Notes: generated from the letters alone by a model not told the origin. Positions 9,526 through 18,886 are shown, counted from the stretch's first letter. The stretch is DNA of 64,000 nucleotides from Bacteroidales bacterium (GCA_028686425.1 JAQUBZ010000001.1:50536-114535); one strand, 5' to 3'. Program-made: numbers and translations.

Positions 9526-10671
9526 ATGATAAGAAAATCTTCTCTTCTACTCTCCTTTTTCCTAATGCTTTCCGTTACGGCCTGCACAAGCGACCCGACT
9601 GCAAAGTTTGAAAAAGAAATGGATACCTTCCTGAAAGATATTCAAAATGTCGGCATGGGTGTTGCCGTTGTCAAAGACAATCAGGTTATATACAACCACT
9701 CCTTCGGAGTCAAAAACCTTGATACCCAAGAGGCTGTAACAAATGAAACACTATTCAGAATAGCCTCCATCTCCAAATCATTTTCAGCCACATCAATGAT
9801 GCAGCTTCGCGAACAGGGGCTTGTATCGCTCGATACGGACGTCAGCGAACTTATGGGATTTCCTATCAGAAACCCGAAATATCCCGAAACAGTCATCACT
9901 CTTGCCATGCTGATGTCCCACACTTCAAGCCTTAACGACAATGAAGGATATTTTACCCTTGATGTCATCAATCCTGCCACCAATCCCAACTGGGCCAACT
10001 GCTACAACGATTACGAACCCGGCAAAGGTTACGAATATTGCAATCTCAACTTCAACATGACGGGAACTTTCATCGAAAAGCTTTCAGGTGAAAGATTTGA
10101 CCAATACGTCAAACACCACGTACTCGACCCTCTCGGTCTATACGGCGGTTATTGTGTAGATTCGCTTGACACTTCACGTTTCGCCACACTTTACGAATAC
10201 AACAACAAGGCAGACTCTCTTGAAGCTTGTCCCGAAGCATACGCACCGAGATCCGAACAGATCAGGAACTACACCATGGGATACTCCACTCCTGTATTTT
10301 CTCCGACAGGAGGGATGAAGATTTCAGCTCTCGACCTCGCAAAATACATGATGATGCACATGAATTACGGAACTTCCCCTGATGGTGTCAGGATTATTTC
10401 AGAAGAGAGCTCAAAGATAATGCAGACCCCTCTTTCAGATCCGGAACACTACGGAATGGCTTTGTGGGTAACCGATGAATATACTCCGGGAATCAAACTT
10501 GTCGGACATACGGGAGGTGCTTACGGCCTAAGAAGCGCAATGTTTTTCAATCCTGCGGAAAAATACGGATTTGTTGTCATCAGCAACGGTTCAAAAGATG
10601 TTGCAAGTGACGGCAAGACCGATATTCTGACAGGTCCAATCCAATTAATGTATAAATACTTTGTCAAATAA
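9526..10671 (+). CDS. serine hydrolase (beta-lactamase/PBP4* family) lipoprotein
   Basis: 381 aa with a lipoprotein signal (SVTAC), the SxxK motif SISKSF, and a YxN-like motif. Fits the class C beta-lactamase-related fold. Confidence 0.8.
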   Translation: MIRKSSLLLSFFLMLSVTACTSDPTAKFEKEMDTFLKDIQNVGMGVAVVKDNQVIYNHSFGVKNLDTQEAVTNETLFRIASISKSFSATSMMQLREQGLVSLDTDVSELMGFPIRNPKYPETVITLAMLMSHTSSLNDNEGYFTLDVINPATNPNWANCYNDYEPGKGYEYCNLNFNMTGTFIEKLSGERFDQYVKHHVLDPLGLYGGYCVDSLDTSRFATLYEYNNKADSLEACPEAYAPRSEQIRNYTMGYSTPVFSPTGGMKISALDLAKYMMMHMNYGTSPDGVRIISEESSKIMQTPLSDPEHYGMALWVTDEYTPGIKLVGHTGGAYGLRSAMFFNPAEKYGFVVISNGSKDVASDGKTDILTGPIQLMYKYFVK

Positions 10672-11968
10672 CAGAAACATAAAGCAAGTGCGTCCCAAGA
10701 AACGCCACTACGATAACCAGCCTGATGAAGGTTTCCAACGTGATGGCTTCGATGATTACAATCGCGACGGCAACCGTGGCAGCAATTGCAACGGTGATAA
10801 TGACCATTTCTGTTTTGGCGGTGACCGCAATGAAAATCGTGATGATGATTACTCTGTAAACGGCTGCGGTCGAAGTGAAGGTTACATTGGTAATTTTTCA
10901 AAGGTGCGTCCCAAGAAGAACTTGGGACAGCACTTTTTGACAGATCAGGCGATTGCCGGCAAGATTGTCGATTCCTTACAGTCAGACGGCAACGTCCTTG
11001 AAATAGGCCCCGGCATGGGAGTACTCACACAGTACCTCCTCCAAAAAGACAACATTTTACTGAAGGTCATTGAAATAGATACCGAATCCGTCCAATACCT
11101 TCTGGAACATTTTCCGAAGCTCGCTCCAAACCTTTATGAAGCAGACTTCCTTAAAATGGATTTATCCAAACTATTTTCAGGACACCATGCAAAACAATCT
11201 GACAATAACGACAGCAATACCAACCGCCCCGCCACCACCGATGACGACAACAGTATCTCAACTTTTGCTTCCGCTAATCATACCGTAGCTACAAACAATG
11301 ACATCGTTTCGGCCATAGATGACGCCAACGCCGACAATGCCACGACTGCAGATTATGATGACAGTATAATGCAATCAGCAGGGCAGCCGGATACAACCAA
11401 ACCATTTTCAGACAATACCCTTGACTCACTCAACGCTGACAGTTACATCAACGCCGGCATTTCTGAAACAGCACTGTCCGGAAATACATCCAAACAATTT
11501 TCAGTAATAGGAAACTTTCCATACAACATCTCCTCCCAGATTTTCTTCAAGATTCTCGACTACATTGACAGCGTGCCGGAAATTGTCTGCATGCTGCAAA
11601 AAGAAGTTGCAGAACGCCTTGCAGCCCCTCCGGGAAGCAAAACTTACGGCATCCTTTCCGTGTTGCTCCAGACGTGGTATGACATCGAATATCTCTTTAC
11701 AGTCGGAGAAGGCTCTTTCCTTCCACCACCAAAAGTCAAATCAGCCGTGATAAGACTCAAACGCAACAACCGTACTCAACTTGGCTGTGACAGTGACCTG
11801 TTCAAACGCATCATCAAGACCACTTTTAATCAGCGCCGCAAGACCATACGCAATTCCATCAAACCCCTTCAGCTTGAACTACCTCCCGACACACCATTCC
11901 TCGACAAACGCCCCGAACAACTATCCGTAGAAGACTTCATCCTCCTGAGTCAGACACTCCAAGCATAA
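10661..11968 (+). CDS. rsmA: 16S rRNA (adenine1518/1519-N6)-dimethyltransferase RsmA/KsgA carrying two in-frame insertions
   Basis: KsgA motifs VRPKKNLGQHFL, EIGPGMGVLT, IGNFPYNISSQIFFK and PPKVKSAV. No ATG start is available. Candidate starts are TTG 10661, GTG 10688 and GTG 10904. At 435 aa it is about 170 aa longer than typical KsgA. Confidence 0.85.
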   Translation: MSNNRNIKQVRPKKRHYDNQPDEGFQRDGFDDYNRDGNRGSNCNGDNDHFCFGGDRNENRDDDYSVNGCGRSEGYIGNFSKVRPKKNLGQHFLTDQAIAGKIVDSLQSDGNVLEIGPGMGVLTQYLLQKDNILLKVIEIDTESVQYLLEHFPKLAPNLYEADFLKMDLSKLFSGHHAKQSDNNDSNTNRPATTDDDNSISTFASANHTVATNNDIVSAIDDANADNATTADYDDSIMQSAGQPDTTKPFSDNTLDSLNADSYINAGISETALSGNTSKQFSVIGNFPYNISSQIFFKILDYIDSVPEIVCMLQKEVAERLAAPPGSKTYGILSVLLQTWYDIEYLFTVGEGSFLPPPKVKSAVIRLKRNNRTQLGCDSDLFKRIIKTTFNQRRKTIRNSIKPLQLELPPDTPFLDKRPEQLSVEDFILLSQTLQA

Positions 11969-11970
11969 CA

Positions 11971-12006
11971 TATTACCAATCCCACGACTATTACCAATCC
12001 CACGAC
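11971..12006 (+). repeat. 18-bp tandem direct repeat x2 (TATTACCAATCCCACGAC)
   Basis: Two adjacent exact copies lie immediately after the rsmA stop. Confidence 0.9.
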
Positions 12007-12037
12007 ATCACAACATCACAAACGGCGTATCTTACGA

Positions 12038-12096
12038 CATACTGCGATGTATTTTACGGCATACTGCGATGTATCTTCACGCATACTGCGATGTAT
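12038..12096 (+). repeat. 22-bp-period tandem repeat x3 (core CATACTGCGATGTAT)
   Basis: The core starts at 12038, 12060 and 12082. Confidence 0.9.
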
Positions 12097-12226
12097 CTCC
12101 CGTCCAGAATATACATCCGAGCAGCAACACAAACCAATCCATCACGGAACATCACCGGAGCCGCCATCCCCGAAACCATTACAAGGACTTCCGTCACGGA
12201 ACATCACCGGAGCCTTTCACCCCGAC

Positions 12227-12264
12227 CACCCTGTGGCAATCAGACCCTTGAAAGCCACGGGGTG
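12227..12264 (-). repeat. REP-like hairpin repeat, inverted orientation relative to the other copies
   Basis: CACCCTGTGGC-N16-GCCACGGGGTG, an 11-bp stem with one G-T pair. It is followed by the reverse complement of the conserved spacer. Confidence 0.85.
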
Positions 12265-12331
12265 GAAAGTGGCAAAAATACAATCGCGGCCAGACATACG
12301 CCAGAGGCATCATCGCTGAAGCAAGCGATTT

Positions 12332-12369
12332 CACCCTGTGGTGATCATAGCCTCGAAAGCCACGGGATG
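12332..12369 (-). repeat. REP-like hairpin repeat, degenerate copy
   Basis: CACCCTGTGGT-N16-GCCACGGGATG, about 105 nt after the previous copy. Confidence 0.7.
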
Positions 12370-12649
12370 GCAATACGTCATCGCGGAGACGCTTCTCCCC
12401 GTAAAGCCAATCCCTCCCAGACACACATCAAAGCCATCAACAGACACTATTATTACAATCACTCTCGGACCATTTGGATACAGCCCCAACAGCAACCTAC
12501 AGCTGCAATCACTGAAATACATTGCAAATGGACCCGGATTTCTACGCCGAAGTTTTGTGCAATAAGTTTCTGATTCTTGTTGTCACATAGGGCTTTTGTG
12601 GGTTTGTGCACCTTGTGATTATTCGTTGCATACACTGACAACTGCTTAT

Positions 12650-14314
12650 TTACCAATATTTTACCTGAAGAATTATTGGCAAGTGGTCACTGACACCACC
12701 GTTATACCGAGGACCGATATGAGTACGAAAAGGCTTGAACCCGAGATATGTCTTATCTTTTTCAGTAATGTATTCATTTTTGTAAATATCCATGTTGCAA
12801 TACGGCCTCATATTTTCAGAGACTAAAAATTGATCGATCAGCTCCCAGATGCCTCTGTACCTGATGGAACCTTCTCCATTTTCAGCTATTTCGACCGCAA
12901 GATTATTAAGGGGGACATTTTGCAGGGCTTCTCCGTCCGGGGTATCATTAAAGTCCCCCATCACGATTATCCCTTGACGAGAAGCAGGTATTGTCTGATA
13001 ATCAGCCACTTTGCCAAAAATATGATTGTCAGAACAAATGATCCGATCTGCCTTAGCAATAGAATCGATTTTCATTTTCAGAGTATTTGATGCAGACATC
13101 CTTTTGCCTGATGAAGCTTCTGTCCCGCTTATTTTTGAAGGCCAATGATTTACGAAGATGTGCAGTGTGTCCCCCGATTGCATGAAGTGTGTAGCTCCTG
13201 TTTCAGGATGGCTTTGCGATTTGTGAGAATGACTTTGCGACTGGTGAGGATTATTTTCAGAGATGGATAATGTGTCCGAAGTGGAATATTTTTCAGAGGT
13301 GGAAGGCGAGCCCGTAGAAGTGAGTTGGTCAGAGGCTGAAGGCGAGCCCGTAGAAGTGAGTTTGCCGGAGACTGGAAGTGTGCCCGTAGAAGTGAGTTGG
13401 TCAGAGGCTGAAGGCGAGCCCGTAGAAGTGAGTTTGCCGGAGACTGGAAGTGTGCCCGTAGAAGTGAGTTTGCCGGAGACTGATAGTGTGCCGTCTGGAG
13501 ACAGAAGTATTCCTTTCACGTATAGAATATCACGAGTAGTTGTCTCCGGGATTGTCACAGGTATGGCCTCTACTGTCAGCACTCTGAATCGGTCTTTTCT
13601 ATATAGCATGGCCACATCTATGCCTCGTTTGTCCGGGCTGTCGCGGTGCACAATCGAATAATTGAGCCTGTACAAAGGCGTTTCCTTCAATAGTTGATTG
13701 AGAACAAATCTGTTTTCGACCTCGGCAAATCCGATAATTATCGGGAAATCACCATATTGCTGTGATATTGAAATAATTGTCTTGGCAATGCTGTTACGTT
13801 TACGAATAAACTTTTTCCAACTCCAATGATATTTGCCGCCATAAGAGAAGTCCTCATCATCAGTGAGTTCGTCATTGAAAGGATCAAAATAATTCTCAAG
13901 ATTCCAAAACATCATCGTAGCCTTTGTGCCGGATTTCTCCTCATGGCTTTCCTCTTTGCTGCTTTCCACCCCGTGGCTTTCAAGGGTCTGATTGCCACAG
14001 GGTGAAATCGATGAAGTCGTTAGCTTCAGCGATGATGCCTCCGGCGTGTGTCTGTGCGGGATTGGATTTTTGCAGGTGTCCACCCCGTGGCTTTCGAGGG
14101 TCTGATTGCCACAGGGTGAAGTCGCTGGCTTCAGCGATGATGTCTCCGGCGTGTGTCTGCGCGGGATTGGATTTTTGCTGCTGTCCACCCCGTGGCTTTC
14201 GAGGGTCTGATTGCCACAGGGTGAAGTCGCTGGAGACGATGGAGACATGTATATCTGAATATTTGTCGAAAGCAGCCATACAAATGCTACAAAGATTATA
14301 TATAGATTTTTCAT
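12650..14314 (-). CDS. endonuclease/exonuclease/phosphatase (EEP) family protein with repeat-derived insertions
   Basis: EEP motifs (MFWNLENYFDPF, FAEVEN, IFVNHWPSK, MGDFND, GGVSDHLPI). The signal-peptide-like start MKNLYIIFVAFVWLL is at 14314. An alternative start, MMFWNL, is at 13915. Confidence 0.75.
   Translation of the reverse strand: MKNLYIIFVAFVWLLSTNIQIYMSPSSPATSPCGNQTLESHGVDSSKNPIPRRHTPETSSLKPATSPCGNQTLESHGVDTCKNPIPHRHTPEASSLKLTTSSISPCGNQTLESHGVESSKEESHEEKSGTKATMMFWNLENYFDPFNDELTDDEDFSYGGKYHWSWKKFIRKRNSIAKTIISISQQYGDFPIIIGFAEVENRFVLNQLLKETPLYRLNYSIVHRDSPDKRGIDVAMLYRKDRFRVLTVEAIPVTIPETTTRDILYVKGILLSPDGTLSVSGKLTSTGTLPVSGKLTSTGSPSASDQLTSTGTLPVSGKLTSTGSPSASDQLTSTGSPSTSEKYSTSDTLSISENNPHQSQSHSHKSQSHPETGATHFMQSGDTLHIFVNHWPSKISGTEASSGKRMSASNTLKMKIDSIAKADRIICSDNHIFGKVADYQTIPASRQGIIVMGDFNDTPDGEALQNVPLNNLAVEIAENGEGSIRYRGIWELIDQFLVSENMRPYCNMDIYKNEYITEKDKTYLGFKPFRTHIGPRYNGGVSDHLPIILQVKYW
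13293..13490 (+). repeat. 36-bp tandem repeat array (two alternating unit types, about 5.5 units) inside the EEP gene
   Basis: Units start at 13311, 13347, 13383, 13419 and 13455. Each begins CCCGTAGAAGTGAGTT. They are in frame (12 aa each). Confidence 0.9.
13966..14224 (+). repeat. three tandem REP-like units (hairpins at 13966-14005, 14080-14119, 14185-14224)
   Basis: Each unit is CCACCCCGTGGCTTTC(A/G)AGGGTCTGATTGCCACAGGGTGA plus the conserved spacer ..CCTCCGGCGTGTGTCTG(T/C)GCGGGATTGGATTTTTGC... Unit lengths are 114 and 105 nt. Confidence 0.9.
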
Positions 14315-14324
14315 AGTCGTGGAT

Positions 14325-15272
14325 TTACATTGCAAGACAACGTTTGATTTGTCGATCTTTAATATGAAACATACTTTTCAGTTCTTTGGCAGCAGATTGC
14401 TTCTCTTCAAGAGTCAATTGCGTATAAGCTTTTTTGCGAAACCGAGGAACTATCTTATTATCAATGTATTCGCAAATAACCATATCGTCATGTTCTATTG
14501 GTTTGAAATGACCGCGTTCATTGGAAAGCAATTCCGAAATATTATAACGACGTTTATTTTCAATGGTTTCTAAAGTTATAGGAGGCAATATCTCATGAAA
14601 AGGAAGAGTATCTTTTTCCTGTTCTCGAGACCACTCTTCATCCGACACCCTATTTAAATGATATAGAAAACGCCTCGCAGTTGTGAAATAATTTTCAGCT
14701 ATTACTATTTCAACGAAAGACTCTGGAAGAATAATACCCTGCGGAGTCAATTTATAATGCGAAGGAATCTTTCCATTTTGAGGCAAATAGTTTCTTGGAA
14801 TACGCCTGCAAGTCTCTGGTAATAAGTCTTGTTGTTTAATGCCTAAGATATCTTTAACATGTAAATCTTTTGTAAAATAACAATTGATTGATGAAAAAGG
14901 ATATGCAAATGAAGTGGTACATACACCATGATGAATGGGATTTCTTAAAATATAACTTGCAACGGCTGTGGCATGGTGCACTCCAACAATAGTGTTACAA
15001 AAAATCTTTTTTTCACCAAGTCTTCCTTTCCTAAAATATCTACTATTGAAGTGTTTGGTAACACTAAGTCTGAAAACTTTCATAAAAGCAGATGGATTAT
15101 CGCTAAGTAACATCAGATGAATATGATCAGACATTAATGCGTAACAAATCAATTTAGAATTAGTGGCATAAAGTGATAATGCCAGACTATTCCGGGCAAA
15201 AAGATAATCATTTGAATCCCTGAAAAGGACTTCATTATGAGATGAATAGCAAATGTGAAATAATTCTGTCAT
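14325..15272 (-). CDS. IS200/IS605-like Y1 (HUH) transposase, RAYT-type, with a C-terminal extension
   Basis: 315 aa with an ATG start. HUH motif in SDHIHLML (H50-I-H52) and a catalytic-Tyr motif SYILRNPIHHG (Y107), at the spacing expected of Y1 transposases. Flanked by palindromic repeats. Confidence 0.7.
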   Translation of the reverse strand: MTELFHICYSSHNEVLFRDSNDYLFARNSLALSLYATNSKLICYALMSDHIHLMLLSDNPSAFMKVFRLSVTKHFNSRYFRKGRLGEKKIFCNTIVGVHHATAVASYILRNPIHHGVCTTSFAYPFSSINCYFTKDLHVKDILGIKQQDLLPETCRRIPRNYLPQNGKIPSHYKLTPQGIILPESFVEIVIAENYFTTARRFLYHLNRVSDEEWSREQEKDTLPFHEILPPITLETIENKRRYNISELLSNERGHFKPIEHDDMVICEYIDNKIVPRFRKKAYTQLTLEEKQSAAKELKSMFHIKDRQIKRCLAM

Positions 15273-15398
15273 GAATCTACCTCCTCAATCTTTCTAAAAA
15301 TTAAACAAAGAATTTGTATAGAAACAAAGTTATAAAAGAAGTTACATTAACTGCAAATAAAAGTGAAGATCTGGAAGAAATTTCTTTTTTAAGGTACT

Positions 15399-15540
15399 CA
15401 CATCGTGGCTTTCTACCCCTTGATTGCCACGAAGTGGATTGGTTGGCTTCGGAGAGGATGCCTCCGGCGTGTGTCTGTGCGGGATTGTATTTTTGCCCCC
15501 TCCACATCGTGGCTTTCTACCCCCTGATTGCCACGAAGTG
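15399..15540 (+). repeat. two REP-like units, sequence variant (hairpins at 15399-15438 and 15502-15540)
   Basis: CACATCGTGGC-TTTCTACCCC(T/C)TGATT-GCCACGAAGTG, with the same spacer (CCTCCGGCGTGTGTCTGTGCGGGATTGTATTTTTGC) between the two units. Confidence 0.85.
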
Positions 15541-15549
15541 AATTAAAAA

Positions 15550-15623: not shown

Positions 15624-16938
15624 GTATTATAAAGAAGACCGTTTCAAGCAGCCATTGCGGAATCTTGAGCGTTCCGTGGTTGGTCAATTCGTCAAAGGCA
15701 GCCGTTTTGCCAAGTCTCCATCCTACAAAAATCACTATCAGCAATCCCCCTATCGGCATCAGGACATTGGAGGAAACATAGTCAAACAAATCAAAAATAT
15801 TCATTCCGAATAGTTTGACACCGCTCATTGCCCCTTGAGACAACGAACAGAAACATCCGAGCAAAAGAATTATTCCAAAAGCAATGGCCACAGCCCCGCC
15901 TCTTTTCATCTTAAACTCTTCAATCAGGTAAGAGACAAACACTTCAAGCAGTGAAATGGATGATGTCAGAGCGGCAAGCAGCAATGTTACAAAAAACAGT
16001 ATTGCGATTACACCTCCAAGCGGTAGAGAGGCAAAGATTCTCGGTAAAGTTATAAATACAAGGCCAGGACCTTCTCCCGGACTGATTCCAAAAGCAAATA
16101 CCGCCGGCATAATTGCACATCCTGCAATGATTGCAAAAAGAGTGTCCGCAATAGACGTATAGGCCGAACACTTCATTATATTTTCATCCTTGCTCACATA
16201 CGAGCCATAAGTCATTATCGTGCCACATCCCAATGAAAGCGAAAAAAATGCCTGTCCGAGCGCAGCGAGAAAAGTTCCGGATGTAACTTTCGAAAAATCA
16301 GGCTTGAACATATACGATACCCCTGCTCCGGCGCCCTCAAGTGTCAGAGAGCGTATAGCAATTATAATCACCATTACAAACAACATCGGCATCATCATTT
16401 TGGTATATTTTTCTATACCTTTCTTGATTCCTGCCAGCACCACAAATGCAGTAAGAGCCATAAAAGCAAGGTGATACAACAAAGGTTTGACGGGTGACGA
16501 GACAAAATCGCTGAACATTGTCGCATGATTGGCTTCACTTCCCGCCCTCGTAAAATCGAACAAAACCGCTTTTACCAGATATTCTATCGACCATCCTCCC
16601 ACAACACTGTAAAACGACAATATGCAGATGGATGCCAGCACTCCGAAAATTCCGATTATCCCCCATTTTGAGCCGGGAGCGAGAACGCGAAATGCCCCGA
16701 ACACATTGGACTGGCTCCTCCTTCCGAGGATAAATTCTGAAAACATAATCGGAAGGCACAGCACGAAAACAAATACAAGGTAAATAATGATAAATGCCGC
16801 CCCTCCGTTTTCCCCCATCAAATATGGGAACCTCCATAAATTGCCAAGCCCTATCGCCGAACCGGCCATGGCCACAAGTACTCCGAACCTGCTGCCGAAA
16901 TTGTCGCGTGAAGAGACTTCTATGTTGTTAGTTTTCAT
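15580..16938 (-). CDS. sodium-dependent transporter (neurotransmitter:sodium symporter/SNF family)
   Basis: 452 aa, multi-TM, with the NSS signature GLGNLWRFPYL near the N-terminus. The ATG start overlaps the folA 3' end by 11 nt. Confidence 0.9.
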   Translation of the reverse strand: MKTNNIEVSSRDNFGSRFGVLVAMAGSAIGLGNLWRFPYLMGENGGAAFIIIYLVFVFVLCLPIMFSEFILGRRSQSNVFGAFRVLAPGSKWGIIGIFGVLASICILSFYSVVGGWSIEYLVKAVLFDFTRAGSEANHATMFSDFVSSPVKPLLYHLAFMALTAFVVLAGIKKGIEKYTKMMMPMLFVMVIIIAIRSLTLEGAGAGVSYMFKPDFSKVTSGTFLAALGQAFFSLSLGCGTIMTYGSYVSKDENIMKCSAYTSIADTLFAIIAGCAIMPAVFAFGISPGEGPGLVFITLPRIFASLPLGGVIAILFFVTLLLAALTSSISLLEVFVSYLIEEFKMKRGGAVAIAFGIILLLGCFCSLSQGAMSGVKLFGMNIFDLFDYVSSNVLMPIGGLLIVIFVGWRLGKTAAFDELTNHGTLKIPQWLLETVFFIIRFVAPVTIAVIMIF

Positions 16939-17761
16939 TGGTTAAGTATTGTATGAACTGAAAATCGAAATTGGTCTTTGTGTCGTGAAACACTTCACTT
17001 TCCCAGATTATCCTCCATTTTGAGGAGTCTATCTTTGGAAAATATGTATCTGCGTCATCTATTATAGTCTTGACGGAGGTTATGTAGAGACGATACGCTC
17101 CGGGCATGGTCTGCCGGTAAATTTCACCGCCGCCGATGACAAAGATTTCGTCACGGGAAGCCATTTTCAGGGCCTCTTCAATAGAAGGAGCAACCATTGT
17201 GACCGTAGCAGCTGCTCCGGCAGCAGCGCCGACAGCAGCCCCACCCCCAACACTTCCCCCGACACAAACAGCAACATCCCCGGCAGCAGCGCCGACAGCA
17301 TCCACGGACCCCCGGACAACACTCCCGGCAACAACCCCGACAGCAGCCCCACCCCCGACACTTCCACCGACACAAACAGCAACATCCCCGGCAGCAGCGC
17401 CAACAGCAGCCACGGACCCCCGGACAACACTCCCGGCAACATCCTCGACAGCAGCCCCGACAGCAGCCCCGCCCCCGACACTTCCCCCGACACTTCCACT
17501 GGCCACGACATCACTCCCAACTGCAGCAAAGGCAGCCTTCTCCACGGTCAGGCTGCGGCTGACAATAATATTTTCACGAAGTGGTAAAGGCTTGCAACCC
17601 AACGACTCCCATGTGTGCCGCCCCATAATGACAGTTCCATTTTTAGTAAGCTTCTTAAAATATTTCAGGTCCGCAGAAATATGCCAAGGCATCCGGTTCC
17701 CACGACCGATCGCCATATTTTCAGAAGTGGCAACTATCAATGAATATCTCTTGCTTGTCAT
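16928..17761 (-). CDS. folA: dihydrofolate reductase with a ~115-aa Gly/Ala/Val-rich repeat insertion
   Basis: DHFR motifs ([47 protein letters not shown]). The ATG at 17759-17761 overlaps the thyA stop (ATGA), suggesting translational coupling. Confidence 0.85.
17233..17500 (+). repeat. 108-bp GC-rich tandem repeat (about 2.5 units) inside folA
   Basis: CAGCAGCCCC(A/G)CCCCC... recurs at 17233, 17341 and 17449. The period is 108 bp (36 codons). It is C-rich on the + strand and has no stops in several frames. Confidence 0.9.
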
Positions 17762-18552
17762 ACGGCAATGGGGGCCTTTATTCCCGGCCACGGGTTATAA
17801 TTTGTTAGCGTAAAATCCTCATATTCAAATGAATATATGTCTTTTTTATCCAGATTGATCGTCATTTGCGGAAGAGACCTCACTTCTCTCGAAAGTTGTG
17901 TTTCCACCTGCTGAAAATGGTTCAGATAGATGTGTGCATCTCCCAGAGTATGAACGAAATCGCCCAACTCATATCCACACACCTGTGCAATCATTTGTGT
18001 AAGAAGAGCATACGAGGCAATATTGAACGGCACTCCTAAAAATACATCGGCACTTCTCTGATAGAGCTGGCAGGAGAGGCGTCCGTCCGCAACATAAAAC
18101 TGAAACAGGCAGTGGCACGGAGGAAGGGCCATGGAATCGATTTCTGCCACATTCCAAGCGGAAATGATGTGTCTGCGCGAATCGGGATTGCGTTTGAGTT
18201 GATCAATAAGATTGGTCAGCTGATCTATTGTACCTCCGTCCGGCGCAGGCCAGCTTCTCCATTGATGTCCATAGACCGGACCAAGCTCTCCTCCGGCATC
18301 AGCCCACTCGTCCCAGATGGTCACTCCGTGATCATTGAGATATTTAATATTGGTACTCCCGGAAATAAACCACAGCAATTCGTAAATAATTGACTTCAAA
18401 TGGACTTTCTTGGTGGTCAGAAGCGGAAACCCTTCGTTGAGATTAAAACGCATCTGATAGCCGAAAATGCTCTTTGTTCCGACTCCCGTGCGGTCACTCT
18501 TGACCACACCATTATCCATTATATGTTGAAGAAGATCTAAATATTGTTTCAT
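17758..18552 (-). CDS. thyA: thymidylate synthase
   Basis: 264 aa. [15 protein letters not shown], the active site ALPPCH, and a canonical ThyA length. Confidence 0.97.
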
Positions 18553-18577: not shown

Positions 18578-18679
18578 CACTTTTTTCATTAACGAGGCAC
18601 CCTGCAGGACAACTTTTGGATAAATACACCCGGTATGAAGATGCTTTATCATGATGCAGCGTGAGTTTCGGGGAGGATA

Positions 18680-18760
18680 CCTCCGGCGTGTGTCTGCGCG
18701 GGATTGTATTTTTGCTGCTGTCCACCCCGTGGCTTTCGGAGGCTTGATTGCCACGGGGTG
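18680..18760 (+). repeat. single REP-like unit (spacer plus a perfect 11-bp-stem hairpin)
   Basis: CCTCCGGCGTGTGTCTGCGCGGGATTGTATTTTTGCTGCTG followed by CACCCCGTGGC-N16-GCCACGGGGTG, between thyA and the ATPase gene. Confidence 0.85.
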
Positions 18761-18886
18761 TAATCGATGGCTTCTGCGATGATGGCCACGGCGTGGAATC
18801 GTGGGCTTCGGACCGCAAATTGTCATGAAATGCAATTGACGGCAATATTATTTTTGCCAAACTGTTGCAAGAGTTTATAATATTCG

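Follow-up and report, generated by a model that had tools for sequence, protein, structure and literature searches.

An in-frame array of palindromic repeats inside an EEP-family gene directly downstream of a RAYT-like gene in a Bacteroidales genome

The locus and its reading frame

In a 64,000-nt stretch of DNA from a Bacteroidales bacterium (GCA_028686425.1, JAQUBZ010000001.1:50536-114535; this whole stretch is called the window below, and positions are counted from its first letter), an open reading frame (ORF) for a protein of the EEP (Exo_endo_phos_3) nuclease/phosphatase family contains an array of repetitive extragenic palindromic (REP) units that is in frame with the catalytic domain. 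The gene lies directly downstream of a RAYT-like gene, and the features of the locus are collected in Table 1. A first-pass annotation, made from the sequence alone, had described a frame that opens at ATG14314, 10 nt after the RAYT-like stop, and that runs through three REP units into the domain. Both observations were verified on the coordinates: the frame is open throughout, and exactly 10 nt separate the stop codon (14325-14327) from ATG14314. The same ORF would yield 561 aa if read from TTG14335, and it was from this codon that the annotation counted when it named an internal methionine M141; the residue is the same, i.e., M134 when counted from ATG14314, as is done here.

Read from ATG14314, the product consists of a signal or anchor helix (aa 1-22), 93 REP-encoded residues, a 13-aa native linker, and the EEP domain, in that order. 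The PF19580 match begins at aa 134 (MMFWNLENYFDPF), where the ATG codons at 13915 and 13912 are located, and its score lies far above the profile cut-off of 27 bits. In an alignment with homologues, the product keeps 57 of the 57 invariant family columns, among which are N138, E140, D228, H390, D454, N456, D543, and H544 (catalytic Asn, Glu, Asp, and His included). The GC content is 27.5% in the signal-coding part (14246-14314), 57.1% between 13957 and 14245, and 41% in the remainder of the gene. A protein identical to the ATG14314 product, with the same start, is present in NCBI sources (P0159).

Table 1. Features at the EEP locus, in window positions
Feature	Position	Strand	Basis or remark
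EEP (Exo_endo_phos_3) nuclease/phosphatase ORF	12650..14314	(-)	554 aa from ATG14314; PF19580 1.4e-63, 215 bits
Native N-terminus, aa 1-27 MKNLYIIFVAFVWLLSTNIQIYMSPSSP, predicted signal peptide or signal anchor	14234..14314	(-)	hydropathy, AlphaFold2 helix, start context
In-frame REP array	13955..14233	(-)	279 nt = 93 codons, aa 28-120; two full units and a terminal hairpin unit
REP hairpin 1	14186..14223	(-)	11-bp stem, 16-nt loop; the lone stem mismatch is a G-U wobble on the mRNA strand
REP hairpin 2	14081..14118	(-)	DTCKN variant unit (as at C37:854-954) with 9-nt junction insert
REP hairpin 3, terminal unit	13967..14004	(-)	without the ETLP*KQSLPD tail
Native acidic linker EESHEEKSGTKAT, directly before the catalytic domain	13918..13954	(-)	short linkers of homologues align here; not homologous to REP copies
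Two internal Met codons (ATG13915, ATG13912), rival start	13910..13917	(-)	start scores; homologue alignment
Second in-frame insertion, in the EEP domain, unrelated to REPs	13172..13495	(-)	36-nt tandem repeats; length varies among strains
RAYT-like HUH/Y1 transposase	14325..15272	(-)	315 aa; PF01797 8.6e-4; NF047646 4.7e-8; fold 4ER8
Bacteroidetes-type promoter-like site upstream of RAYT-like gene	15325..15360	(-)	TTTG at 15357, TAACTTTG at 15332
Two non-coding REP units upstream of RAYT-like gene	15399..15544	(-)	period 104 nt (starts 15399/15503)
Non-coding REP array downstream of EEP stop	12227..12440	(+)	opposite orientation to the in-ORF array; 88% complementarity over 144 nt with 14080-14223

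The repeat family and the RAYT-like gene

The limits of the in-ORF array were set by BLAST against the whole assembly, i.e., by the extent of its homology to other genomic copies. A unit of the family is made up of an 11-bp stem, a 16-nt loop, and a spacer of ~67 nt, and within the EEP ORF the three hairpins follow each other at start-to-start spacings of 105 and 114 nt, both multiples of three, in agreement with the earlier measurement. The repeat peptide reads SPCGNQTLESHGV(D/E)..KNPIP.RHTPE.SSLK, the REP-encoded stretch as a whole is rich in Ser, Pro, Thr, and His, and an example of a REP-encoded tryptic peptide is HTPETSSLKPATSPCGNQTLESHGVDSSK. When the 2.22-Mb, 51-contig assembly was searched using nhmmer with one 105-nt unit, at least 31 units in ~20 loci were found, a lower bound with many units at contig ends, and 22 hairpins have at least 9 of the 11 stem pairs. 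The copy number is underestimated because the repeat probably breaks the assembly. Many REP arrays lie within ~200-400 nt of a contig end (contigs C8, C17, C19, C37, C39, C46, C50, C12, C6, and C33). A period of 105 nt recurs in the family and is seen in the sole other array with two detected hairpins.

As expected of a REP, the repeat is a short, imperfect palindrome with many copies scattered over a single genome. At all other loci it is also extragenic, with short open frames only, including the copies at 15399-15544 and 18667-18795, which are intergenic and which the first-pass annotation had called non-coding; the array at 13955-14233, within the 554-aa ORF, is the exception. Neither a GTAG/CTAC nor a CGTC/GACG tag was found in the 105-nt unit, and the repeat DNA was matched in none of the 40 relatives searched, of which 24 belong to the same genus.

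The RAYT-like protein contains H50-I-H52 (the HUH motif) and Y107 (in YILRNP), which are invariant in 27 homologues. Its profile scores remain below the cut-offs (19.9 vs 23 bits for PF01797; 33 vs 80 bits for NF047646, REP_Tyr_transpos), and a sequence search against the PDB returned only noise. The AlphaFold2 model has a predicted local distance difference test score (pLDDT) of 90, and a Foldseek search with it ranks 4ER8_A, a structure of the E. coli RAYT in complex with a REP hairpin, first among the matches (E = 1.9e-5, probability 1.00, TM-score of 0.66 with respect to the target), ahead of the TnpA proteins of IS200, IS608, and ISDra2. REP units are found on both sides of the gene (15399-15544 and 13955-14233). 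The protein is a distant relative of the RAYT and IS200-like Y1 HUH transposases. Despite the repeat being tagless and the protein being a distant and longer relative, the labels REP and RAYT-like are functionally justified by the HUH and Tyr residues, the sub-threshold profile matches, the 4ER8 fold match, and homologues in the genus that are flanked by hairpins.

These same-genus homologues are at most 38% identical to the RAYT-like protein, with flanking hairpins of their own in several loci. Among such loci (L017-L023), some homologues are flanked by their own, unrelated hairpin repeat, with hairpins at 1276 and 2589 in L018 and at 1263 and 3173 in L019, which suggests that RAYT/REP pairs, each with a private repeat, occur across the genus.

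The open frame of the array by itself

The absence of stop codons through the REP units, although correctly reported before, is not beyond chance. In 28 REP units elsewhere in the genome, the frame used by the EEP ORF contains 6 stops per 2154 nt, while each of the remaining five frames has 11-25. Full-length internal units are, with few exceptions, stop-free in the EEP frame and encode the peptide CGNQ(A/T)LESHGV.SSKNTI..RHTPEASSLK, and the stops that do occur in this frame are mostly within a terminal-unit variant, ETLP*KQSLPD, a tail that is stop-bearing in several non-coding arrays and that the EEP array lacks. A stop-free array is thus unremarkable, since the EEP frame is the intrinsically open frame of the REP family and the 105-nt period is natural to it. 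This period also means that the gain or loss of a unit preserves the frame automatically. What does exceed chance is that a good start context, a signal-like peptide, and an unbroken run into the domain occur together.

Choice of the translation start

A start-context matrix was derived from 895 unambiguous starts of the genome (first ATG at most 36 nt from an upstream stop, ORF of at least 250 aa). ATG14314 scores +4.66, which is the 45th percentile among true starts and the 99.7th among internal in-frame ATGs; this score is reached by only 0.1% of GC-matched internal ATGs and by 0 of the 17 ATGs inside the RAYT-like gene. In contrast, ATG13915 and ATG13912 score -8.5 and -7.1, neither of them above the 1.5th percentile of true starts. 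The two downstream codons resemble internal ATGs, while the context of ATG14314 is typical of the genome's starts. TTG14335 was rejected as a start, as it overlaps the RAYT-like stop and scores -0.6, below ATG14314.

The N-terminus encoded from ATG14314 has a Lys in its n-region and a 12-residue core with a mean hydropathy of 2.83, a level that ~1% of open ATG-led 30-mers drawn at random from the genome attain, and AlphaFold2 predicts aa 2-22 to be helical (pLDDT ~85). A signal peptide or anchor at the place where the first-pass annotation had read a plausible signal peptide is supported by the hydrophobic core and predicted helix as well as by the start score. A lipoprotein signal was discarded because the first Cys is residue 33, with Pro at -1.

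We compared this N-terminus to those of 113 homologues, namely, those with the FWN(V/L)EN motif. Of these, 88% have an N-terminal stretch that is strongly hydrophobic and 96% one that is moderately so, and by these measures the N-terminus of the EEP protein looks as signal-like as those of its homologues. The segment that precedes the domain has a median length of 33 aa in the homologues and a maximum of 75, compared to 135 aa in the EEP protein, or 42 aa when the 93 REP-encoded residues are subtracted. The length without the REPs being within the family range, the insertion is at a junction that was already variable in length.

The sole full match to a Bacteroidetes-type promoter on the minus strand between 13800 and 15700 is the site upstream of the RAYT-like gene; in the same scan, no TAnnTTTG promoter was found between the RAYT-like start and the EEP domain. 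Due to the lack of a promoter in between, an mRNA that carries the internal ATGs very probably also carries ATG14314, with no stop behind it.

These results bear on the possibility that the array belongs to the 5' untranslated region, translation starting at M134 or M135 (ATG13915 or ATG13912), the signal peptide having been lost, the enzyme being cytoplasmic, and the upstream frame being a relic. In many homologues a Met that immediately precedes FWN aligns with the one encoded by ATG13912, the annotated N-termini of a few family members are very short, and Di Nocera et al. (2013, PMC3733652) caution that REPs described as "intragenic" at N-termini are in many cases artefacts of annotation; moreover, the REP frame would be open regardless. 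Nevertheless, neither codon has better than an internal-type context, no promoter-like site lies between the array and the two ATGs, so that the mRNA probably includes the well-contexted ATG14314, and an at least moderately hydrophobic N-terminal stretch is kept by nearly all homologues. We therefore regard an internal start as unlikely. The first-pass annotation had left a choice between this start with loss of the signal and a translated linker, and it is the latter, at ~100 aa, that is favoured.

We also considered an inversion between the arrays at 12227-12370 and 14080-14223 as the source of the signal peptide. It was rejected because the signal-coding piece would stay outside the inverted segment and the region on the ksgA side encodes no signal peptide; a chance origin of the signal is unlikely.

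Comparison with relatives, strains, and protein databases

EEP orthologues of the same genus are open frames of 290-386 aa with 50-62% identity over the N-terminal half. In these repeat-free orthologues, which the first-pass annotation had proposed as a comparison, a short hydrophobic N-terminus stands directly before (V/M)MFWNVENYFDPF, without any repeat. A search of 1.84 billion representative proteins with the repeat peptide retrieved this EEP cluster as the sole long protein that contains it; apart from the cluster, the one genuine match is to a spurious ORF of 120 aa that lies on a related REP array. The repeat peptide was accordingly rejected as a conserved protein domain, and the earlier concern that orthologues might share the Cys/His-containing repeat as a domain of their own is excluded by the database search together with the orthologue comparison.

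Five assemblies of the same species carry the EEP gene, all in frame and with either 2 or 3 REP units. The array has 2 units in two of them (492 aa) and 3 units, but no 9-nt junction insert, in a third (551 aa); the remaining two share the form seen in the window (554 and 530 aa), the 530-aa form differing only in the internal tandem repeat. The strains show at most 4 point differences in the gene, and for this reason a dN/dS or frame-constraint test among them was discarded. The strain polymorphism shows that the array is real and dynamic, and the DTCKN variant in the second unit of the window, which is shared with a copy on contig C37, suggests that this unit was converted by another copy.

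A dynamic array with a regular Cys...His...His pattern in each unit might point to a selected functional module, such as a metal- or surface-binding repeat or a tether of tunable length. The strains do differ in unit number, and the indels in the ORF are multiples of three (+9, +/-105), whereas non-coding arrays also show a 104-nt period. However, the peptide is confined to a single cluster of long proteins and is absent from all orthologues examined, the corresponding frame of the non-coding copies specifies this peptide as well, and AlphaFold2 gives it no structure. Selection for such a module seems very improbable.

Predicted structure, hairpins, and the favoured reading

In the AlphaFold2 model of the EEP protein (from 36 sequences), the EEP core has a pLDDT >90, while aa 23-127 are unstructured (pLDDT <50), and aa 280-375, the second insertion, are unstructured as well. 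This second insertion (13172-13495) is composed of 36-nt tandem repeats and a His/Ser/Gln repeat, amounts to ~96 aa that are predicted to be disordered, and is 24 aa shorter in other strains (P0002 and P0158). At the RNA level, the region folds with -156 kcal/mol (z = -8.7), and all three hairpins are formed.

We favour, with a probability of about 75%, a young and tolerated in-frame REP insertion that is translated as a disordered tether. The observations are the anatomy of the locus, the quality of the start signal, the family comparison, the species specificity, and the strain polymorphism; the transcription, translation, and export of the product, as well as the neutrality of the tether, are what we infer. 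A lineage-specific RAYT-associated array would have been inserted at the variable junction between the N-terminal signal or anchor helix and the catalytic domain, adding 93 residues predicted to be disordered and leaving the gene unbroken; the gene would survive the insertion because the repeats are open in one frame with a 105-nt period. The transcript would probably arise from the promoter upstream of the RAYT-like gene and be shared with it. Translation would start at ATG14314, with the ribosomes passing through the three hairpins, and would yield a signal helix, a REP-encoded tether, and the EEP domain, exported or anchored by the native helix, the Ser/Pro/Thr-rich stretch serving as a passive tether. 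As DNA, the hairpins may remain substrates for recombination and possibly for the RAYT-like protein, and since they are intact at this level, the array would keep recombining, as seen in the 2 or 3 units, the converted unit, and the 9-nt insert. The earlier suggestion that the REPs are translated into a linker of a secreted enzyme is thus favoured, while the word "co-opted" overstated the case: the linker looks tolerated, and nothing shows it to be useful.

Several points weigh against this reading. Inspection of the sequence revealed no clear AXA-type cleavage site (small residues at -3/-1) after the hydrophobic core in LLSTNIQIYMSPSS, and an uncleaved membrane anchor and a cleaved Sec signal are equally possible for the predicted N-terminus. 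The conservation of the frame among the strains has little power to show selection, because there are so few point differences and because a 105-nt unit keeps the frame automatically. The nearest REP-free orthologue has only ~60-62% amino acid identity, and the empty site is not reconstructable at the DNA level. Additionally, three stable hairpins could attenuate transcription or translation after the RAYT-like gene.

The last point leads to the possibility that the EEP gene is silenced or decaying, with the hairpins ending or destabilising the RAYT transcript and the open frame reflecting only the youth of the insertion. The great stability of the hairpins, the second large disordered insertion within the domain, the displacement of the gene from the head of the thyA-folA-SNF operon (its place in the genus relatives examined), and a paralogue in the genome (C23) would all be compatible with this. 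On the other side, no catalytic or invariant residue has been lost, five assemblies preserve the ORF even though the repeats are actively turning over, and no U-runs follow the hairpins. A silenced or decaying gene is, in our view, quite improbable.

Gene order and neighbouring genes

In four relatives of the genus, for which ~20 kb were examined, the gene order is EEP > thyA > folA > SNF, all four genes sharing a strand, and one of these relatives also has ksgA immediately upstream. The window between 10661 and 18865 instead reads ksgA > and then < EEP < RAYT < SNF < folA < thyA, which is the result expected of two adjacent inversions, and REP copies are located at all three junctions (12227-12440; 13955-14233 with 15399-15544; 18667-18795). 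This suggests a REP-associated rearrangement of the locus. In another contig of the same species (L014, 62-2098), an IS66-family element (TnpB_IS66 and DDE_Tnp_IS66) is found upstream of the RAYT-like gene, at the place that the SNF transporter has in the window; the neighbourhood of the RAYT-like gene is rearranged between strains.

Further length variation was seen in the genes around the locus. The dihydrofolate reductase (DHFR) gene of the window (16928-17791) contains a GC-rich 108-nt tandem repeat (17217-17458), and the length of this insert is polymorphic, as the protein has 287 aa in the window and 201 aa in a contig of the same species (L015). KsgA/RsmA (10661-11968) carries low-complexity in-frame inserts and, at 435 aa, is longer than its counterparts in L013 and L015 (426 aa) and in genomes of the same genus (L010 and L011, ~255 aa). 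Between the ksgA stop and the downstream REP array (11971-12226), short tandem repeats are present (18-mer x2, 22-mer x3.3, and 25-mer x3).

Relation to known systems and significance

In-frame palindromic repeats in genes are a rare kind of event that has already been described. Intragenic REPs are wholly contained in the ORFs of known proteins, where they frequently form dimers or groups, add 20-30 residues, and in many cases lie near the termini; such insertions are regarded as tolerated and not as functional (Di Nocera, De Gregorio and Rocco 2013, PMC3733652). The EEP array is like them in consisting of short palindromes of the RAYT-associated type within an ORF. It differs in being a tandem 105-nt array of 93 residues in a Bacteroidales genome, directly downstream of a RAYT-like gene, and in its place at the junction of signal peptide and domain, its unit number that is polymorphic among strains, and its lack of a GTAG/CGTC tag.

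The Rickettsia palindromic elements (RPEs) are selfish palindromes of ~100-150 bp that occur in frame in functional genes (Ogata et al. 2000, via PMC10969869 and PMC3733652), and the likeness lies in a conserved peptide encoded in an intrinsically open frame. RPEs, however, are inserted singly, at many genes of one intracellular alphaproteobacterium, with no known dedicated transposase, while here one of ~20 loci is genic, the array is tandem, and a RAYT-like gene is associated with it; no sequence relationship is expected. The arrangement also resembles the REP-RAYT modules ("REPtron"; E. coli TnpA-REP, 4ER8) in that a single-copy HUH/Y1 gene is flanked by cognate hairpins. In contrast to these, the 315-aa protein described here has a ~180-aa C-terminal extension and scores below the Pfam and NCBIfam cut-offs, and the flanking REPs are direct rather than inverted, with the 3' cluster being within the neighbouring gene.

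That the in-ORF array is more than tolerated would be a long shot, and two forms of this idea were considered. If the array were a REP-based contingency locus, gain and loss of 35-aa units, driven by the RAYT-like protein or by recombination, would give an exported nuclease a tether of heritably variable length. Alternatively, mRNA hairpins 30-120 codons past the start would pause ribosomes after the signal helix has emerged, which would aid membrane targeting. If either were true, the 10-nt junction between the RAYT-like gene and the EEP gene would couple the expression of a transposase to that of the enzyme that carries its substrates.

The case leaves the current understanding of REPs unchanged. 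It does offer a clean and checkable example of a RAYT-associated REP array that lies inside a gene and is probably translated into protein sequence, in the Bacteroidales, where REP/RAYT systems have been little described. For annotation, it argues for judging N-terminal "intragenic" REPs by start context, by the N-termini of the family, and by the position of the promoter. The insertion would have been tolerated because the junction of signal and domain was already length-variable across the family, and hairpin repeats with one open frame and a period of 3n can lengthen proteins costlessly and create length polymorphism at the level of strains.

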